Source of the DNA: an uncultured Dehalococcoidales bacterium
GTDB lineage: Bacteria > Chloroflexota > Dehalococcoidia > Dehalococcoidales > UBA2162
Assembly (NCBI GenBank): GCA_964493985.1
Contig: CAZBQL010000001.1
Coordinates: forward strand, 3,849-67,848
Direction: 5' to 3'
Length of the DNA stretch: 64,000 nt
Both the position numbers and the translations under genes were made by a program. This document shows, one piece after another, positions 310-16,901 of the stretch. The stretch's first letter is position 1. Every line of letters starts with the position of its first letter. The notes beneath the pieces were generated by a model. The model searched no databases and was not told the origin of the DNA. It worked only from the letters and a program-made list of their open reading frames with translations.

Positions 310-450
310 TTAGCCTTTTCCAATCCTGAACATCTTGGTCCCACAGGACGGGCATACACCCTGGGTTGCGGGTTTACCGTTCTTCATTGTAATTGCTTTT
401 GCGTCCTTAATCTCTTTCTTTGCCCTGCACTTTACACAATATCCTTCCAT
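310..450 (-). CDS. small zinc-ribbon protein, 46 aa (DUF5679-like)
   Basis: Reverse strand reads ATG..TAA = MEGYCVKCRAKKEIKDAKAITMKNGKPATQGVCPSCGTKMFRIGKG, with CxxC...CxxC. GGGAGG SD lies 7 nt upstream. Below the 60-aa cutoff of the ORF track. Confidence 0.6.
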   Translation of the reverse strand: MEGYCVKCRAKKEIKDAKAITMKNGKPATQGVCPSCGTKMFRIGKG

Positions 451-599
451 TACTCAACCTCCCTTTTGATTTGGTTTTAATTAGAGACTATAAACATAAA
501 CACGTACTTTGTCAAGCACTGAACGGAAATTTCTTCAGAAGATAAACATACCCTTACTCTTTAAGTTCGGAAATTATTTAATTTAATCGTGCGTAATTA

Positions 600-629
600 T
601 TGACATTATGGAGTAAGTATGCATAAAAT
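600..629 (+). promoter_or_regulatory. putative sigma70-type promoter of the tubulin-like gene
   Basis: TTGACA (600-605), 18-nt spacer, TAAAAT (624-629), about 28 nt upstream of ATG 657. Confidence 0.4.
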
Positions 630-656
630 TGCGAAAAGTTTGTGCTGAGGTGGTAT

Positions 657-1832
657 ATGAAAATAGTGGTAATTGGTCTGGGACAGTGCGGTGGAAGGAT
701 AGCTGATGAGTTCGCAAAACTGAATAACAAGGCTAAGAGACAGCGCGGCATTGAAATCGTAACCGGCGCTTTTGCTGTTAATACCGATGCTGCAGACCTG
801 AGTGGTCTGACCGCTATCAAGCGGGACTACCAGCACAGGATATTGATTGGCGGCAGAAAAACAGGAGGCCACGGCGTCGGCAAGGTAAACGAGCTTGGCG
901 CTGAGATCGCTAAAGAAGACTCCGATAAGGTAATAGACGCTATCAGGACAACCAAGCGTTTTTATGAATCTGATGCCTTCTTTCTGATCGCGAGTGCCGG
1001 TGGCGGTACCGGCTCAGGCGCTCTGCCGGTAATTACACAGCATGTTAAGGCTCGTTATTCCGACAAACCGGTATACACTGCCGTTGTCCTCCCCTTCGAA
1101 CATGAAGAACAGACCGAAGAACGTACAACCTATAATACCGCTACCTGTCTGAAATCAACCTACTCGGTCGCTGATGCGGTATTCCTTATTGATAACCAGA
1201 GGTATATCAGGAAGGATTCATCCCTCTCCAACAACCTGGCGAAAATCAACCAGATGATCGCCGAACCGTTTTACGGTATCCTCTGTGCCGGTGAGGAGAA
1301 AAAACCCAAATACATCGGCGCCAAACTGCTCGATGCCGGTGATATTATGCAGACCATCGTCGGCTGGACAGTCATCGGTTACGGAAATTCTCAGATACCC
1401 CTGCTCAGGTTCCCCGGTGAAAAGTCAAGGGACTTCATCAAGAAGGGGACCGAGACCCAGAAAGCCATCCAGGCTATGGACGCCGCTATAAGCGAGCTTT
1501 CCCTGAACTGCAAACCGGAAGATGCCAGGAGAGCGCTTTTCCTGTTATCGGCTCCTTCAAGGGAAATGAACGTGGACATGGTCAAAGAACTTGGTGATTA
1601 CATGAGGAATCTCGTTCCACTCGCTACTATCAGGAATGGCGACTATCCCAGACAAAGAGGATTACTGGATGTCAGCGTTATACTTTCCGAACTGAGTGAT
1701 GTTGAAAAGATAAGAGGTTACTATACCAAATCGGCCAGCCTCATACCGGTAATGAAGAGGAGACAGGAAGAAACCGTAGAAAAACTTATGGAAATAGATG
1801 AAACTTCCAAGGATATCCCATCACTACTGTAA
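657..1832 (+). CDS. tubulin/FtsZ-superfamily GTPase, CetZ-like
   Basis: Track ORF 642-1832. The likely start is ATG 657 (MKIVVIGLGQCGG) behind GAGGTGG. Motifs: T1 loop GLGQCGG, T4 loop GGGTGSG (tubulin/CetZ type, not FtsZ GGGTGTG), GHGVGKVNELGAEIAKED, and IDNQRY. Confidence 0.85.
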   Translation: MKIVVIGLGQCGGRIADEFAKLNNKAKRQRGIEIVTGAFAVNTDAADLSGLTAIKRDYQHRILIGGRKTGGHGVGKVNELGAEIAKEDSDKVIDAIRTTKRFYESDAFFLIASAGGGTGSGALPVITQHVKARYSDKPVYTAVVLPFEHEEQTEERTTYNTATCLKSTYSVADAVFLIDNQRYIRKDSSLSNNLAKINQMIAEPFYGILCAGEEKKPKYIGAKLLDAGDIMQTIVGWTVIGYGNSQIPLLRFPGEKSRDFIKKGTETQKAIQAMDAAISELSLNCKPEDARRALFLLSAPSREMNVDMVKELGDYMRNLVPLATIRNGDYPRQRGLLDVSVILSELSDVEKIRGYYTKSASLIPVMKRRQEETVEKLMEIDETSKDIPSLL

Positions 1833-1850
1833 AAGTTGAAAGACTGGACT

Positions 1851-1893
1851 ACCGGCTTCAAGTAAACAAATATTTGAGGCCGGTTTTTATTTT
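1851..1893 (+). terminator. rho-independent terminator after the tubulin-like gene
   Basis: 11-bp stem ACCGGCTTCAA / TTGAGGCCGGT with one G-U pair and a 12-nt loop, followed by TTTTTATTTT. Confidence 0.7.
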
Positions 1894-1952
1894 CGTCATT
1901 ATTCCTTTTTTACTGATATTTTTCTTGGGAAAGCCAACCTTATTGCGGTATA

Positions 1953-3728
1953 ATGGATAGCGATAACAATATGGCTTCACAGGTATTATATCGAAAATGG
2001 CGACCACGCTCTTTAGCTGAAGTAATCGGTCAGGAACCGGTAACGCAGACACTGCGTAATGCTCTCAGAAGCGGACGAGTTTCCCATGCTTACCTGTTCT
2101 GCGGTCCCCGGGGTACAGGAAAAACCAGCACTGCCCGTAGCCTGGCTAAGGCGATTAACTGTATTAATCCCAATGACGGTGAACCGTGTAATACCTGTGA
2201 AATGTGTCTTGCGATTTCTGAAGGCAGAGCACTGGATATTATAGAGATCGATGCGGCCAGCAATACAGGAGTCGAGGATATCCGCAGCCTCCGGGAGAAA
2301 GTAAACTACGCACCAAACCAGGCAAGTTACAAGGTCTATATCATCGACGAAGTCCATATGCTCAGTAACAGCGCTTCCAATGCGTTGCTTAAGACTCTTG
2401 AAGAACCACCCTCACATGTAGTATTTATTCTGGCCACTACCGAGGTCCAGAAAATCCTGACCACCATCCTTTCGCGATGCCAGCGTTTCGACTTCCGGAG
2501 ACTGACCCAGGCTGACCTGGTCTCGTATCTCGATTACGTTTGCCAGGGTGAGGGTATTAAGGTTAAACCGGAAGCAATGCAGCTAATAGCGAAAAGTGCT
2601 ACAGGCAGTGCCCGGGATGCTGTTAACCTCCTGGAAAGGCTGTCGACCTACTACGGCTCTGAAATCGGTCTTGAACAGGTGCAGGCGGTACTCGGGATCA
2701 CCGGAGATATGCGAAGCAGAGAACTTGTCAGGCATATAATGAACAGGGATATCACTGCCGGGCTTGCTACGATTAACGGAGTAAACAATGACGGTCTGGA
2801 CCTTAAACAATTCAACCGTGAACTCGTCGAATACCTCAGGGGATTATTACTGATCAAAACAGGCTCCGGAGATTCGGCAGACCTTGTTGCGGAAGATATC
2901 GAGGAATTAAAAGAAATTGCATCCGGTGTATCTCTTGAGCAGATATTGACCGCTGTCAGGTTGTTCGGGCAGCTTGAAATCGGTATCGATAATTATCCAA
3001 CCCTTCCACTGGAACTCGCTCTGATCGACTGTGTCCTTGCCGCTGAAAGTGAAAAAGAACAGGCAGAAAAGATTGATAATATAACACTCCATTCACAGAT
3101 AAAGACTTCGGCTCATGAACCGGCTTATACATCCGACCCTAAAGCAAAAGCACAACCGGCCAGGGAGACCAAGGAGAAACATGCTCAAGAGCATGACAAT
3201 CATGAGCCGGTGGCTGAAGAGATAGAGTCCGCACAAGAAGATGAAATAAGTGGACCGGCTATCGTGAACAGCGAACCTGCTCCCGAATCAGGAACCGAAC
3301 CCCGACATGAAGAAAAGATAGAGGAAAAGTCACAACCGCTATCTGAATCAGCCCGGGAAATTAAGCCTGAAGAAAATGGTTTATCTGCCCTGAACGGCGG
3401 CACGGAGTTGGAGAGATTAAAATTGAACTGGAGACAGGTTATCGACCTGGCGCCTCCGGAAACGAAGAAAACATCGGCTCTTGCCATTTTGAGAAGCGCT
3501 GGTATCGATCCACTTACGATCGACAATGATACGGTAGTACTGGCTTTCCGGCACAAACAGCATAAGGAGTTAATGGAAAAAACTGAAAACCTGAAGGTGG
3601 CGGAAAAAATACTCAGCAATTTCCTTGGAAGGTCCTGCCGCGTTTCCTGTGTGCAGGAAGACAACAACCATCTGTTAAAAGCAGCCCTGAAAATGGGTGC
3701 CCAAATAATCGACCAGGAGGAGAAATGA
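1953..3728 (+). CDS. dnaX: DNA polymerase III subunit gamma/tau
   Basis: LYRKWRP N-terminus, Walker A GPRGTGKTS, zinc module CNTCEMC, DEVHML. An acidic low-complexity linker precedes the C-terminal domain. The start may instead be ATG 1971 (MASQVLYRKWRP). Confidence 0.9.
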   Translation: MDSDNNMASQVLYRKWRPRSLAEVIGQEPVTQTLRNALRSGRVSHAYLFCGPRGTGKTSTARSLAKAINCINPNDGEPCNTCEMCLAISEGRALDIIEIDAASNTGVEDIRSLREKVNYAPNQASYKVYIIDEVHMLSNSASNALLKTLEEPPSHVVFILATTEVQKILTTILSRCQRFDFRRLTQADLVSYLDYVCQGEGIKVKPEAMQLIAKSATGSARDAVNLLERLSTYYGSEIGLEQVQAVLGITGDMRSRELVRHIMNRDITAGLATINGVNNDGLDLKQFNRELVEYLRGLLLIKTGSGDSADLVAEDIEELKEIASGVSLEQILTAVRLFGQLEIGIDNYPTLPLELALIDCVLAAESEKEQAEKIDNITLHSQIKTSAHEPAYTSDPKAKAQPARETKEKHAQEHDNHEPVAEEIESAQEDEISGPAIVNSEPAPESGTEPRHEEKIEEKSQPLSESAREIKPEENGLSALNGGTELERLKLNWRQVIDLAPPETKKTSALAILRSAGIDPLTIDNDTVVLAFRHKQHKELMEKTENLKVAEKILSNFLGRSCRVSCVQEDNNHLLKAALKMGAQIIDQEEK

Positions 3729-11927: not shown

Positions 11928-14354
11928 TTATTTTGTGTATTGGAAGACTTTTACCTGTGGTGTAAGATTTCCTGATGTAAGCTGCAGACCCTGTTCCGAA
12001 GCATGCACTAACTCGTAGTTGTCCAGCGCCTCCAGTGGTATGCACGGAGCCATAGGATCATTACTGACTATCCGGTAATTACCGGTTTCCTGGGCAGATA
12101 TGAATTCACTCGCATCCTCATATGAAGTATATTGCGTGGCTTCCGTAATCAACTTGAAAACATTGCCTGCTTCATCCTGACGTTGTTCATAACCAATAAC
12201 CCAGATACTTGTCGAATTCGCAGCCTGGCAGTTAAAATTATACATTCGGACTGCCATAGATTGGAAATATTCGGGGTAGAATAAAGGTCTCTGGATCAGT
12301 TGTGTCTGGTCCTCGGGATTGGTTACCAGGTACATATCGAAGAAATCCGTCACCTGCATCCCTCCCCAGGTTATAACCGCCCAGAATTTACCGCTGGCGT
12401 TATTAGGATTTACATAAGCTGTTTCATAATCGATGATTATGTATCTTCCATCGACTTTTTCTATCACTTTGTCGGCTGTTTCTTCATCCTGCGCCGTAAA
12501 GAATGCAGCCATATCTCTAATGGCACGTGGGTCCTGTCCCGGGTTGGCACATGGTAAACGATGGGCCATCCTGGTTATCCAGTAACCGTAATCCCACCAT
12601 GAAAGAACGCCATACGCGGTATCCGGGTAAGGGTAATATACATCCAGTGCTTTGTAATAATCTGTCGTATTCGTAGTATCCGGATAGCTGCTCAGAATAG
12701 ATGAATAAGAAATATACTTGTCGGATTGCACCAGGGCGTAATATTCGTCAGGATTACCGAAAGGATCAGGAGTATTCTCCCGGACCCAGTCGAGCACACT
12801 ACACCAGGCATCGGAAGGAGCGTAGGGCACTCTTTTAGATGCGTCGATTGCCGGCTCTATACTCCAGAAATAACCTGTGAAAAATACAACAATTACAACC
12901 ATAGCCATTATAGAATAAGGGGCTATTAACGGATTGCCTTGCTGCCTCCGGACAGCCCTCCGCTTCACGTTTTTTGCTCTCTCTATCGCCTGTTTTACCC
13001 TCTCAGTGAAGACATGTGCTCTGGCATAATCGATAACAAGCCATGTGACATACCCGGTAAGTAAAGCAATATTGACACTGTAATAATAACCAAACCGGCG
13101 TTGTCCGAGATTCGCTATAAATATAATGATACTCCAGACAAGAAAAAGGGTCTTTTCAAAACTTCCCTGTTTAAAGAAGTAATACAGGAGTATCAACATA
13201 GATATAATAGCTATGAAAAAGGTGGTATTATAATTATTCCAGACAATAGCAAAAGCATTTCCGTATGATGCACTTATAAGCGGCTGCATTTCGATGGTAG
13301 TCAGTTGTTCTCCGACTGGTCTGAATATGGAAAACGCCTCCAGCATCGACTTAACAATACCTGGAGAAATCAGGTAGAAAACACCGAAGCCTGCCGCTCC
13401 CATAACAATTACTGTTACCGGGTAATATGCGGATTTCCAGTCCCTCTTCGCCATAAACCAGGATAATAATCCAAGGGCAGCACAACCGACTGCTCCAACC
13501 AGCGAGGACGCAGGTATTATTGTCGCCACATTACCGGGAAGAACGATTAAAAAACCAACAAAAAACATAATCGTACCGACAATCGACAGGTATTCGGTAG
13601 ACCTGCTTTTAAGATGGTCGATAACAAACTGTATGAGCAGGAAAACGAATACAATAAACGTAAACATTGGAGCACCCGACCAGGTCAGGCCGAACATACC
13701 CAGCGTGACACCGGCAAGCAGACTATAGATTAACGGTTTTCTCACTGAAGGCCAGTCAAATTTCGTGAATTGAACGAACCGCACATCATTCTTTCTGGCA
13801 GCTTTCAACCCAAGTATCACGAACAGAATGAGAAGCGAGGTAAGAAAAACTTCAAAACAGTGATAGTCTGAAAAACCGAGTTTAGTACGGGAAAGATATT
13901 CACCCGGCAGTACAGCCAACAAAGCAGCCGAAAACACTCCACCCCATTTCCCGATCAACTCCCTGCCAATAAAAAAAACGATCACAATGGTCAGCGCTGC
14001 AAATACCGGCGGAGTGAACACGCCGACAATATCTATTGCACGCTGGCCGGGTGTGACCAGCCCGAAAATGCTGCTTACGCTGGCAATCAGGTTATTATAT
14101 AGGTGGGTCTGGGCGATACTGCTTCCGCCGGGATAGAGTAAGTAAGGATCAAAATTGGATGCGCTGGGGAAATTAGCTGCCAGGTTATCCACAAGCCTCA
14201 TCTGAAAATATGCATCGGCGCTGGAATATTTTATCCAATCACCTTTGAATATCTGGCTGTATGATAGAACTGTCCTGAGTATAAAAGCTATTGCGGCTAT
14301 GACTGCAACGAGAATACCGGTCAGTACGGATGACGGGAGTTTGAGTTTATTCAC
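11928..14354 (-). CDS. STT3/AglB/PglB-family oligosaccharyltransferase
   Basis: 808 aa. Roughly 13 predicted TM helices in the N-terminal ~480 aa, then a soluble domain carrying the diagnostic WWDYGYWI motif (LSWWDYGYWITRMA). Acidic first-loop residues are SSADAYFQMRLVDN. Confidence 0.85.
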   Translation of the reverse strand: MNKLKLPSSVLTGILVAVIAAIAFILRTVLSYSQIFKGDWIKYSSADAYFQMRLVDNLAANFPSASNFDPYLLYPGGSSIAQTHLYNNLIASVSSIFGLVTPGQRAIDIVGVFTPPVFAALTIVIVFFIGRELIGKWGGVFSAALLAVLPGEYLSRTKLGFSDYHCFEVFLTSLLILFVILGLKAARKNDVRFVQFTKFDWPSVRKPLIYSLLAGVTLGMFGLTWSGAPMFTFIVFVFLLIQFVIDHLKSRSTEYLSIVGTIMFFVGFLIVLPGNVATIIPASSLVGAVGCAALGLLSWFMAKRDWKSAYYPVTVIVMGAAGFGVFYLISPGIVKSMLEAFSIFRPVGEQLTTIEMQPLISASYGNAFAIVWNNYNTTFFIAIISMLILLYYFFKQGSFEKTLFLVWSIIIFIANLGQRRFGYYYSVNIALLTGYVTWLVIDYARAHVFTERVKQAIERAKNVKRRAVRRQQGNPLIAPYSIMAMVVIVVFFTGYFWSIEPAIDASKRVPYAPSDAWCSVLDWVRENTPDPFGNPDEYYALVQSDKYISYSSILSSYPDTTNTTDYYKALDVYYPYPDTAYGVLSWWDYGYWITRMAHRLPCANPGQDPRAIRDMAAFFTAQDEETADKVIEKVDGRYIIIDYETAYVNPNNASGKFWAVITWGGMQVTDFFDMYLVTNPEDQTQLIQRPLFYPEYFQSMAVRMYNFNCQAANSTSIWVIGYEQRQDEAGNVFKLITEATQYTSYEDASEFISAQETGNYRIVSNDPMAPCIPLEALDNYELVHASEQGLQLTSGNLTPQVKVFQYTK

Positions 14355-15194: not shown

Positions 15195-16901
15195 TTACTT
15201 TCCTGTGAGAAGTGCCCAAACCGAATTGATGTAACGTAATTTTTCCTTTCCCATCGAAAGTTCCAGGTGAATTTTTTCACTATTCGGGAATGCGTTTATA
15301 CGGTCGATGTCAGGCTTCATGCGGGCTAATTCTTCTTCAGCGTTATCTCCGGCAAGCACTTCGTCTATCCTGTGCATCATGGCACGGGCTTCTTCGATAC
15401 GCTTGATCCCGACCTCTGCAAGATCATCCGGAATTACACCGTATTTGGACTTCAGTCGTACCAGTCTGAGAATACCTTCATAGGTGCTTTCCACTATCTC
15501 ATTGCGAGTCATCCATTCAGTTTCATAATTTAATGTGTATTTCCAGCTTGGTGACTCCAATGCTCGCCTGTATTCTTCTACGTTCCTGAAAAGTACCTTA
15601 TAACCATGCTTTTCAGACTGCTCATAACCAAGACTTCCCGGGTCGAGAAAAGGAGACAGAGGAGAGAGGAACAAAGCCAGGCGTTCGGTTCCTTTGAATT
15701 TTTCCATCAGGTAACCACAGTAATCGACCGTATCCATTACCGACTTCATATCCTGCCCCGGCATGCCGACCATGTAGAACACGTCCATTCTACCGCAGCC
15801 CACTTCCAGCGCATCACTGATCATGTTTTCGAGGGCTTCATCGGTATAATTCCTTCCCGATTTTTTCCTCACCCCGTAGTCATGAGATTCCGGTGAAATT
15901 TCAAGGCAGAATCCGGGAGCGGCCAGACTCATCTGTTGAAGTGCTTCTTTCGACATGGGCGAGAATATCTCGAACATCAACTGGTTCTTTACTCTCTTTT
16001 CCCGTAAACGCCGTAATACCTCATTGGCATAATCTTCCCCTTTTTGATAAAGGTCGCCGAGAACGAAAATCGGCCCCCGGCTGAAACGCGCTATCTGCCT
16101 GATATCACGCACGACAGCCTCCGGTGATCTGAAGACTGGTTTCTGTCGATTATGATAACACCGGAAAGCGGCATTAGAACCACCGCATATCACGCAATTA
16201 TTAACACAACCGCGGCAGGTAATAACTCCTGTAATGGGATAACGCAGCCAGTCGCTAACCGGTATGTGACCGACAAGGTCACGGTACCTGATTACCGACC
16301 TGATCACCCCGCCATAATGATTGATCATCACATCCTCGATATCATCAGGTACGTTGGTAAAAGGATTTATCCTGACATCACCGTCAGAGTCCTTCCAGAC
16401 CAGGTTGGGTATTGTACCGGGATCTCCCCCCTTGATTATGCAGTCCATCAATTGCCGGAAAGGCTCTTCAGTGGAATCACCCCTTATAAGAAAATCTATC
16501 TCCGGGTACTCGATCAGTTGTTCGTGAAAGTAGGTCGCTGAAAAACCGCCGAAGACAACCTTTGAGTCCGGGTGATACTTCTTTACCAGCCTGGCTACCT
16601 CAATTGAGCCGTGACTGTGGACCATCCAGTGCAGGTCGATTCCGAACACCGGAGAGTCCAAATTTTTTATCATCTTTTCGGCATCGAAATTCCTGTTCCG
16701 GAGCATGAGGACCGCAAGATTGACTATCCGTACCCTGTATCCGGCCTTTTCCAGGTACTCGGCAATACTGGCAAGACCGATAGGATACATCTCGAAAACC
16801 GGTGATGGCGGAACAAGATCACTCACCGGACCGTAAAGAATGGCCTTCTCTCGAAAGTCGTACACACTCGGAGCGTGGAGTAAAACAAGGTCTATAGCCA
16901 T
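15195..16901 (-). CDS. B12-binding-domain radical SAM protein
   Basis: N-terminal Rossmann-like B12-binding-type domain, followed by the radical SAM cluster motif CVNNCVIC (in CRGCVNNCVICGG). 568 aa. The start overlaps the stop of the upstream prenyltransferase gene. Confidence 0.85.
   Translation of the reverse strand: MAIDLVLLHAPSVYDFREKAILYGPVSDLVPPSPVFEMYPIGLASIAEYLEKAGYRVRIVNLAVLMLRNRNFDAEKMIKNLDSPVFGIDLHWMVHSHGSIEVARLVKKYHPDSKVVFGGFSATYFHEQLIEYPEIDFLIRGDSTEEPFRQLMDCIIKGGDPGTIPNLVWKDSDGDVRINPFTNVPDDIEDVMINHYGGVIRSVIRYRDLVGHIPVSDWLRYPITGVITCRGCVNNCVICGGSNAAFRCYHNRQKPVFRSPEAVVRDIRQIARFSRGPIFVLGDLYQKGEDYANEVLRRLREKRVKNQLMFEIFSPMSKEALQQMSLAAPGFCLEISPESHDYGVRKKSGRNYTDEALENMISDALEVGCGRMDVFYMVGMPGQDMKSVMDTVDYCGYLMEKFKGTERLALFLSPLSPFLDPGSLGYEQSEKHGYKVLFRNVEEYRRALESPSWKYTLNYETEWMTRNEIVESTYEGILRLVRLKSKYGVIPDDLAEVGIKRIEEARAMMHRIDEVLAGDNAEEELARMKPDIDRINAFPNSEKIHLELSMGKEKLRYINSVWALLTGK

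Follow-up and report, generated by a model that had tools for sequence, protein, structure and literature searches.

The 64,000-nucleotide stretch analyzed here (hereafter, the window) comes from an uncultured Dehalococcoidales bacterium (GenBank assembly GCA_964493985.1, contig CAZBQL010000001.1, positions 3,849 to 67,848) and carries near its start a gene for a predicted CetZ-like GTPase of the tubulin superfamily. An earlier note on this DNA had singled out positions 600-1893, which correctly bracket the cetZ-like gene from its promoter to its terminator (Table 1). In a six-frame list, the frame at 642-1832 (+) is the single long open reading frame (ORF) at the locus. We take ATG 657 as the start of translation because a Shine-Dalgarno sequence precedes it and both elements are conserved in homologues (the ATG and the GAGGTG core are kept in the aligned upstream regions of 16 of them). 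The alternative start, GTG 642, lies just 5' of, and overlaps, the conserved Shine-Dalgarno region and was rejected. All the motifs quoted in the note were found in the translated protein, namely GLGQCGG, GGGTGSG, GHGVGKVNELGAEIAKED (residues 71-88) and IDNQRY (residues 178-183). The end of trpA lies upstream of the gene, and dnaX, ybaB, recR and recO, followed by lysS, serS and gatB, lie downstream. The trpA and dnaX-ybaB-recR neighbors had been described as unambiguously bacterial, and all of them are present in the window.

Table 1. Features of the cetZ-like locus (window positions) and examples of coiled-coil-looking ORFs in related loci (positions within each locus).
Feature	Position	Strand	Details
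Sigma-70-type promoter-like site	600-629	+	TTGACA (600-605), 18-nt spacer, TAAAAT (624-629); 11/12 consensus positions
Shine-Dalgarno GAGGTGG	647-653	+	3 nt 5' of the ATG; read in the sequence
cetZ-like gene	657-1832	+	391 amino acids, then TAA stop; start at ATG 657
GTPase (Tubulin/FtsZ) domain	660-1205	+	residues 2-183; Pfam PF00091
T1 GLGQCGG	675-695	+	residues 7-13
T4 GGGTGSG, tubulin signature	999-1019	+	residues 115-121
CetZ_C domain	1218-1718	+	residues 188-354; Pfam PF21011
T7-loop equivalent LLDAGDIMQT	1326-1355	+	inside CetZ_C; contains D226 and D229
Long C-terminal helix	1704-1808	+	residues 350-384; DSSP on the AlphaFold model
C-terminal peptide DIPSLL	1812-1829	+	residues 386-391; resembles the FtsZ C-terminal docking peptide
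Intrinsic-terminator-like hairpin	1851-1894	+	14 pairs, 6 of them G-C, then TTTTTATTTT; hairpin plus T-run at 1851-1884
Separate promoter-like site for dnaX	1925-1954	+	consensus scan
Coiled-coil-looking ORF, locus L017	2150-4180	-	
Coiled-coil-looking ORF, locus L010	1628-2140	-	
Stretch with coiled-coil-looking ORFs, locus L009	3273-9269		

Profile scores, the ranking of sequence and fold matches, and the conserved residues of the T1, T4 and T7 loops all assign the protein to the CetZ type rather than to FtsZ. In Pfam searches it matched Tubulin (128 bits against a cutoff of 33, 7e-37) and CetZ_C (57.4 bits against a cutoff of 21.6, 1.6e-15), the latter being precomputed on all 120 closest homologues in the protein database. 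The same searches gave no match to FtsZ_C or Tubulin_C in the window protein, the Tubulin_2 profile reached 19.6 bits (below its cutoff of 27), and the NCBIfam FtsZ equivalog TIGR00065 scored 72.2 bits, far under its cutoff of 295.2. When the protein was compared with all PDB sequences using phmmer, Haloferax CetZ1 (4b46; 3.3e-45, residues 1-382) and CetZ2 (4b45; 7e-30, residues 1-363) were the best matches, followed by Methanosaeta CetZ (3zid; 2e-14, residues 2-211). The FtsZs (1.7e-11 and weaker) and the tubulins, BtubA/B and AtubA (about 1e-6) gave partial matches. An AlphaFold2 model built from an alignment of 34 sequences was of high confidence (predicted local distance difference test 92.3; predicted template modeling score 0.90). 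Foldseek comparisons of the model with the PDB placed CetZ1 (target-normalized template modeling score 0.92), CetZ2 (0.93) and 3zid at the top, and all FtsZ structures ranked lower. A structure prediction had been proposed as a check for the CetZ C-terminal helix, and the model contains one long helix in that position. Further, in a multiple alignment D226 falls opposite D209 of E. coli FtsZ, and D229 opposite both D212 of E. coli FtsZ and E218 of CetZ1. Conservation of each of GQCG, GGTGSG and DAGDI is 95% or higher among 105 members of the Dehalococcoidia clade described below. The FtsZ-type T1 and T4 loops (GGGGxN and GGGTGTG) are absent from the window protein, as the note had observed. 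From these sequence matches and the predicted fold, we assign the protein to the CetZ-type GTPases of the tubulin superfamily, with an apparently intact nucleotide site and catalytic loop, and not to FtsZ.

The likeness to Haloferax volcanii CetZ1 and CetZ2 extends beyond the best sequence and fold matches and the Tubulin plus CetZ_C architecture to the GHGVG..NELGAEIA block, the tubulin-type T4 GGGTGSG, the acidic T7 residue (window D229 at the position of CetZ1 E218), a long C-terminal helix followed by a short hydrophobic and acidic tail, and the presence of multiple paralogues per genome. The window protein differs from both in its overall sequence (~29-35% identity), its T1 loop (GQCGG, with a conserved Cys, instead of GQAGG), the Pro-containing DIPSLL tail at the exact C-terminus, its position in a separate Dehalococcoidia clade (bootstrap 83) and its bacterial host. 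An archaeal host is a descriptive, not a mechanistic, feature of the CetZ family, and the window gene lacks it. With bacterial FtsZ the protein shares the superfamily fold (Foldseek, about 1e-24), the D..D catalytic pair of T7, a nearly identical C-terminal D-[IV]-P-[SA]-[FL]-[LM] pattern (also in the FtsZs of the related loci L013 and L034) and, in L013, chromosomal adjacency. In contrast to FtsZ, it has no FtsZ_C domain, reaches 72 of the 295 bits demanded by TIGR00065, carries tubulin-type T1 and T4 loops, lacks a long disordered linker before the tail and is split from FtsZ with 100% bootstrap. The T4 sequence GGGTGSG is also that of the eukaryotic, Asgard and Prosthecobacter tubulins (BtubA/B, AtubA), and beta-tubulins likewise have GQCG in T1. 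Unlike the tubulins, which gave partial matches at ~1e-6, the window protein has no Tubulin_C and is much shorter, and CetZ and FtsZ came first in the fold search.

Homologues of the protein are numerous in Dehalococcoidia. More than 120 clusters of at least 80% identity were found in the protein database; each cluster with an organism name was a metagenome-assembled genome (MAG) of Dehalococcoidales or Chloroflexota, and most were annotated as 'FtsZ' or 'tubulin/FtsZ family'. An exhaustive HMMER scan of 1.84 billion representatives recovered just 82 clusters with E-values of 1e-30 or lower and, with the limit set at 1e-10, 289. Using a profile made from an alignment of 11 sequences, we identified 149 encoded relatives in one genome per GTDB species and analyzed the loci of the best 80 of the 149, all of which are Dehalococcoidia with 58-85% identity to the window protein. 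These loci and the dnaX, ybaB, recR, recO and gatB genes of the window bear out the bacterial host that had been proposed. One of the 80 (L018, JAUVYB010000005.1) is titled Deltaproteobacteria, yet its gene order (eno-MBL-HgdD-gap-cetZ-like-cetZ-like-dnaX-ybaB-recR) is Dehalococcoidia-like, and the MAG has probably been mislabelled or mis-binned. Among sequences with demonstrated archaeal origin the nearest is P0152, which is 35% identical and has cdhCDE, fae-hps, a class V FBPase and AOR as neighbors. Of four divergent representatives whose genomic context was inspected, P0152 alone was clearly archaeal; the contigs of P0148, P0149 and P0165 were short and uninformative.

A neighbor-joining (NJ) tree (183 sequences, 387 columns, 100 bootstraps, Kimura distances) separated E. 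coli FtsZ and two Dehalococcoidales FtsZs from all other sequences with 100% bootstrap support, which places the window protein outside this FtsZ branch and together with CetZ-type sequences. A clade of 129 sequences (bootstrap 83) brought together all the 'GQCGG'-type Dehalococcoidia sequences, representatives close to them and one small group of unknown origin. CetZ1, CetZ2 and P0152 fell in a poorly resolved archaeal-type group. The Dehalococcoidia sequences thus appear to form a distinct clade of their own, either nested in canonical CetZ or sister to it; because the backbone nodes have less than 50% bootstrap, the tree decides for neither position. The tree contained no labelled Thermococcales sequence, and the Thermococcales CetZs mark the boundary of canonical CetZ (Brown and Duggin, 2023). 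This outcome agrees with the use of 'CetZ-like' for Chloroflexota sequences by Santana-Molina et al. (2023). In one Chloroflexota MAG (L069, 10001-13635) we observed three tandem tubulin-family genes, one of the Dehalococcoidia type (GQCGG) and two of the archaeal type (GQAGG); the two GQAGG copies cluster in the tree with representatives near the archaeal P0152.

The promoter and terminator that had been attributed to the gene are both where the note placed them and recur across the family. The region contained five promoter-like matches against 4.4 expected in shuffles, so that a single match is not significant; the significance of the site comes from its conservation at a fixed offset across homologues. 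Of the regions upstream of 98 homologues, 84 match the consensus at 10 or more of 12 positions, most of them with the site at one shared distance, ~57 nt 5' of the ATG; in random windows the same score was reached in 15 of 500. In the aligned upstream regions TTGACA is invariant and is followed by a TAAAAT-like -10 box, ~20 nt or more of leader and the GAGGTG Shine-Dalgarno sequence, whatever the upstream neighbor. In the window, transcription would be expected to start ~7 nt 3' of TAAAAT and to end at 1884-1894. Similarly, a terminator-like site was found behind 39 of 99 homologues, whereas 9 of 300 random windows contained one. The fixed promoter position and the frequency of terminators support the reading of the gene as a probable monocistronic unit and of this arrangement as a family trait.

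Conservation extends to the very end of the protein. A [ILV]-P-[STAVM]-[LFIV] motif is present in the last 14 residues of 100 of the 105 clade members, at the very C-terminus in 89, and the six-residue tail window reads DIPSLL in 50. The tail aligns with DIPAFL of E. coli FtsZ and with DVPSFL and SIPSFM of Dehalococcoidales FtsZs. As a sequence pattern alone, DIPSLL fits the FtsZ docking pattern (D/E)(I/V)Px(F/Y)L save for an F to L change. The C-terminal peptide of FtsZ is an established docking site for FtsA, ZipA, SepF and other proteins. Archaeal-type CetZ representatives often end in related motifs (DIESLL, DIEPLF, KDIPPLL), so that the tail may be an ancestral trait of the CetZ/FtsZ lineage and not one that arose in bacteria.

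Two or three paralogues were present within the fetched stretch in 25 of 79 loci, and in some loci the adjoining paralogues are divergent (~40% identity). In a frequent arrangement the genes run eno-MBL-HgdD-like-gap-[cetZ-like B]-(two minus-strand ORFs)-[cetZ-like A]-dnaX-ybaB-recR, and by synteny the window gene is the dnaX-linked 'A' copy. The two intervening ORFs (~170 and ~676 amino acids) are rich in Ala and Glu, look like coiled coils by eye and match no Pfam family. Such ORFs flank cetZ-like genes in 29 loci and are possible filament partners. Searches with tblastn of the 64-kb window found no second tubulin gene (using the CetZ-like protein as the query) and none of the coiled-coil ORFs. 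The note had also suggested looking for a canonical ftsZ elsewhere in the genome. The window has none, and related loci do have one: L013 (5811-11983) carries mraZ-rsmH-ftsA-ftsZ-cetZ-like-nrdR, L034 has ftsA-ftsZ adjoining the cetZ-like gene in convergent orientation, and L024 has a partial ftsZ. The L013 FtsZ shares 45% identity with its E. coli counterpart and contains an FtsZ_C domain (103 bits). Because canonical FtsA and FtsZ co-exist with the CetZ-like protein in these relatives, the latter does not replace FtsZ. In L013 rsmH directly adjoins ftsA, without the peptidoglycan genes that usually lie between the two, and the ftsL, ftsI, mur, mraY and ftsW genes are absent from the cluster. 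This lack of peptidoglycan genes is in line with a report that Dehalococcoides and Dehalogenimonas have no peptidoglycan (PMC10284905).

We judge the chances to be slightly better than even that the protein assembles into a GTP-dependent, tail-docked filament for shape determination in peptidoglycan-less, S-layer-coated cells. GTP would be bound through the tubulin-type T1 to T6 loops, and subunits would polymerize head to tail, with D226 and D229 of the T7 loop of one subunit completing the GTPase site of its neighbor. The dynamic filaments formed in this way could use the conserved DIPSLL peptide to attach to a membrane anchor or partner; the likeliest anchor would be FtsA, the one that the resident FtsZ uses. 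Once docked, the filaments would organize the envelope, with cell shape as their primary role. Polymerization, docking to FtsA and the shape role are what we infer from the observations above. Cultured members of the order lack peptidoglycan and are disc-shaped, and for this reason the family is a candidate answer to how a wall-less, S-layer-coated bacterium controls its shape and division. D. mccartyi encodes FtsA and FtsZ (DET0342, DET0343) and two further 'FtsZ' genes, DET0589 and DET0636 (PMC5102406), which are candidate members of the CetZ-like family. Proteomics also detected in this species an 'FtsZ/tubulin GTPase' distinct from FtsZ, btf_0551, whose abundance drops as the cells go from disc to barrel (PMC8163811); it, too, is a candidate member of the family. 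Other D. mccartyi proteome papers make no mention of these genes.

Several points weigh against a shape-determining filament of this kind. For the bacterial clade, polymerization, GTPase activity and localization are expected by homology to characterized relatives. No candidate partner gene (a coiled-coil ORF, a second paralogue, ftsA or ftsZ) was found in the 64-kb window, and ftsZ adjoins the cetZ-like gene in just 2-3 of 79 loci. To our knowledge, the molecular mechanism by which Haloferax CetZ1 controls cell shape is not settled. The absence of peptidoglycan in the organism of the window is not readable from 64 kb of its MAG. Finally, the likeness between the tail and FtsZ spans six residues and similar tails occur in archaeal-type CetZ representatives, so the peptide may be an ancestral motif with a different partner.

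A role in division is an unlikely alternative, albeit one with several observations on its side. The protein would then be a second divisome tubulin, functionally similar to archaeal FtsZ2, that co-assembles with FtsZ at midcell through a shared FtsA-binding tail and provides the constriction or scaffolding that wall-less cells cannot obtain from septal peptidoglycan synthesis. The FtsZ-like C-terminal peptide would suit such a role, as would the position of the gene directly downstream of ftsA-ftsZ in L013, within a division cluster free of peptidoglycan genes, and next to ftsZ in L034. In D. mccartyi, FtsZ and the extra tubulin-like protein, a candidate CetZ-like family member, drop together (PMC8163811), and two FtsZs are apparently important in archaea without a pseudopeptidoglycan wall (PMC9856176). 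However, ftsZ linkage is rare, the dominant linkage being to dnaX and the coiled-coil ORFs, and two to three paralogues per genome are more reminiscent of the haloarchaeal CetZ expansion. In addition, the closest characterized relatives, CetZ1 and CetZ2, are described, in the literature consulted, as proteins of cell shape and motility, and division is ascribed to FtsZ1 and FtsZ2.

The earlier note had also considered the gene an independent and possibly transferred unit, and had named an archaeal or chimeric contig as a possibility. If the gene had been acquired horizontally in recent times, or belonged to a mobile cassette or to a contig that is chimeric or contaminated, so that an archaeal cetZ reached a bacterial bin by chance, this would account for the gene having a promoter and terminator of its own and for the archaeal-type AglB oligosaccharyltransferase in the same window. 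It could also account for the comparison with the closest homologue, which is encoded on a closed Dehalococcoidales chromosome (L001, CP070832.1; 94% amino acid identity). Nucleotide homology to L001 is confined to window positions 537-1831 (L001 9881-11175), that is, to the promoter and the coding sequence, and the flanks are entirely different. Since the homology stops at these limits and the neighborhoods are unrelated, the gene and its promoter form a compact unit that was relocated or duplicated at least once within the lineage, not imported. Further observations run counter to a recent transfer. The best 80 genome matches are all from Dehalococcoidia, whereas the nearest archaeal-type sequences are ~35% identical. 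The dnaX gene lies no more than two ORFs downstream of the cetZ-like gene in 29 loci, usually followed by ybaB-recR as in the window. The composition of the gene (48.6% GC; 53.6% GC at third codon positions) lies within the range of the other window genes (47.7±3.4% and 50.5±5.7%, respectively). The ratio of nonsynonymous to synonymous substitution (dN/dS) against the L001 homologue is 0.058; in more distant homologues synonymous sites are saturated and the protein is still 72-85% identical. Searches with tblastn gave no match to the CetZ-like protein in phage sequences and, in plasmids, matched solely the CetZs of haloarchaeal megaplasmids (~31% identity). No transposase or integrase gene adjoins the cetZ-like gene. 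Recent transfer is thus effectively refuted and, with it, the import or chimera scenario becomes very improbable; the contig is bacterial (Dehalococcoidales). Because the family is Dehalococcoidia-wide, syntenic with dnaX, multi-paralogous, under strong purifying selection and of normal composition, we regard the gene as a conserved, vertically inherited component of the Dehalococcoidales lineage. It is possible that the gene crossed between domains long ago, at the base of the Dehalococcoidia clade.

As a tubulin-superfamily protein outside FtsZ with a weak Tubulin_2 match, the product could also be imagined as a tubulin of the TubZ or PhuZ type that segregates plasmid or prophage DNA. This reading is scarcely credible and was rejected: the Tubulin_2 score is below threshold, no TubZ is among the 60 best PDB matches listed, phage and bacterial plasmid matches are lacking, and the gene is chromosomal and adjoins housekeeping genes, without tubR or centromere-like repeats in its vicinity.

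About 10 kb from the cetZ-like gene, at 11931-14354 (-), lies a gene for an archaeal-type oligosaccharyltransferase of 808 amino acids (NCBIfam archaeo_STT3, 554 bits against a cutoff of 450). Its best PDB matches were to Archaeoglobus AglB-L (5gmy and 3waj, 5e-56), followed by eukaryotic STT3A, with no bacterial PglB among the matches listed. Judging from these matches, the AglB-like gene would be a second archaeal-looking envelope gene in the window. A broader scenario, which we offer as a speculation and think rather doubtful, is that Dehalococcoidales swapped peptidoglycan morphogenesis for an archaeal-style toolkit of envelope and cytoskeleton. Several CetZ-like paralogues and dedicated coiled-coil partners would then operate under an AglB-glycosylated S-layer, and the CetZ-like filaments would use the same FtsA anchor as FtsZ by means of a C-terminal peptide that is either mimicked or retained. 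The module would have come from archaea or been kept from before the split of FtsZ and CetZ, at about the time of wall loss.

Santana-Molina et al. (2023; PMC9871819) had already called sequences of Chloroflexota-Dehalococcoidia 'CetZ-like', in a single sentence and one figure; there, a hidden Markov model of the CetZ C-terminus matched bacterial proteins at about 1e-10 and the groups were described as sparse and paraphyletic without further analysis. The window gene almost certainly belongs to that group. The family recovered here is, by comparison, broad (149 relatives in species-representative genomes), syntenic, multi-paralogous and linked to coiled-coil ORFs, and our analysis adds a conserved promoter and a conserved tail peptide to the published account. 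As far as we could find, the breadth of the family, its conserved synteny, the clusters of paralogues and coiled-coil ORFs, the fixed promoter and the FtsZ-like tail are new. CetZ reviews and papers from 2023-2024 (including PMC9856176) still call CetZ archaea-specific, a statement that a broadly conserved, constrained and multi-paralogous bacterial CetZ-like family undercuts. The significance is tempered by the earlier report of the group in passing, by the computational nature of the present evidence and by the difficulty of manipulating Dehalococcoidia. Nonetheless, the family lends itself naturally to comparative work on CetZ function beyond Haloferax and provides one case that bears on the exchange of cytoskeletal genes between domains, and its FtsZ-like tail and coiled-coil neighbors lead to directly testable hypotheses of protein-protein interaction.

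Two other genes of the window were recorded in passing. At 15198-16901 (-) is a gene for a B12-binding radical SAM protein (TIGR04190, 671 bits; model short name B12_SAM_Ta0216). Divergent from the cetZ-like gene, at 310-450 (-), is an ORF for a zinc-ribbon protein of 46 amino acids (MEGYCVKCRAKKEI...CPSCGTKMFRIGKG), assigned to Pfam DUF5679 in a twin contig and preceded at 515-487 (-) by a promoter-like site of its own (TTGACA-17-TATAGT, 11/12).

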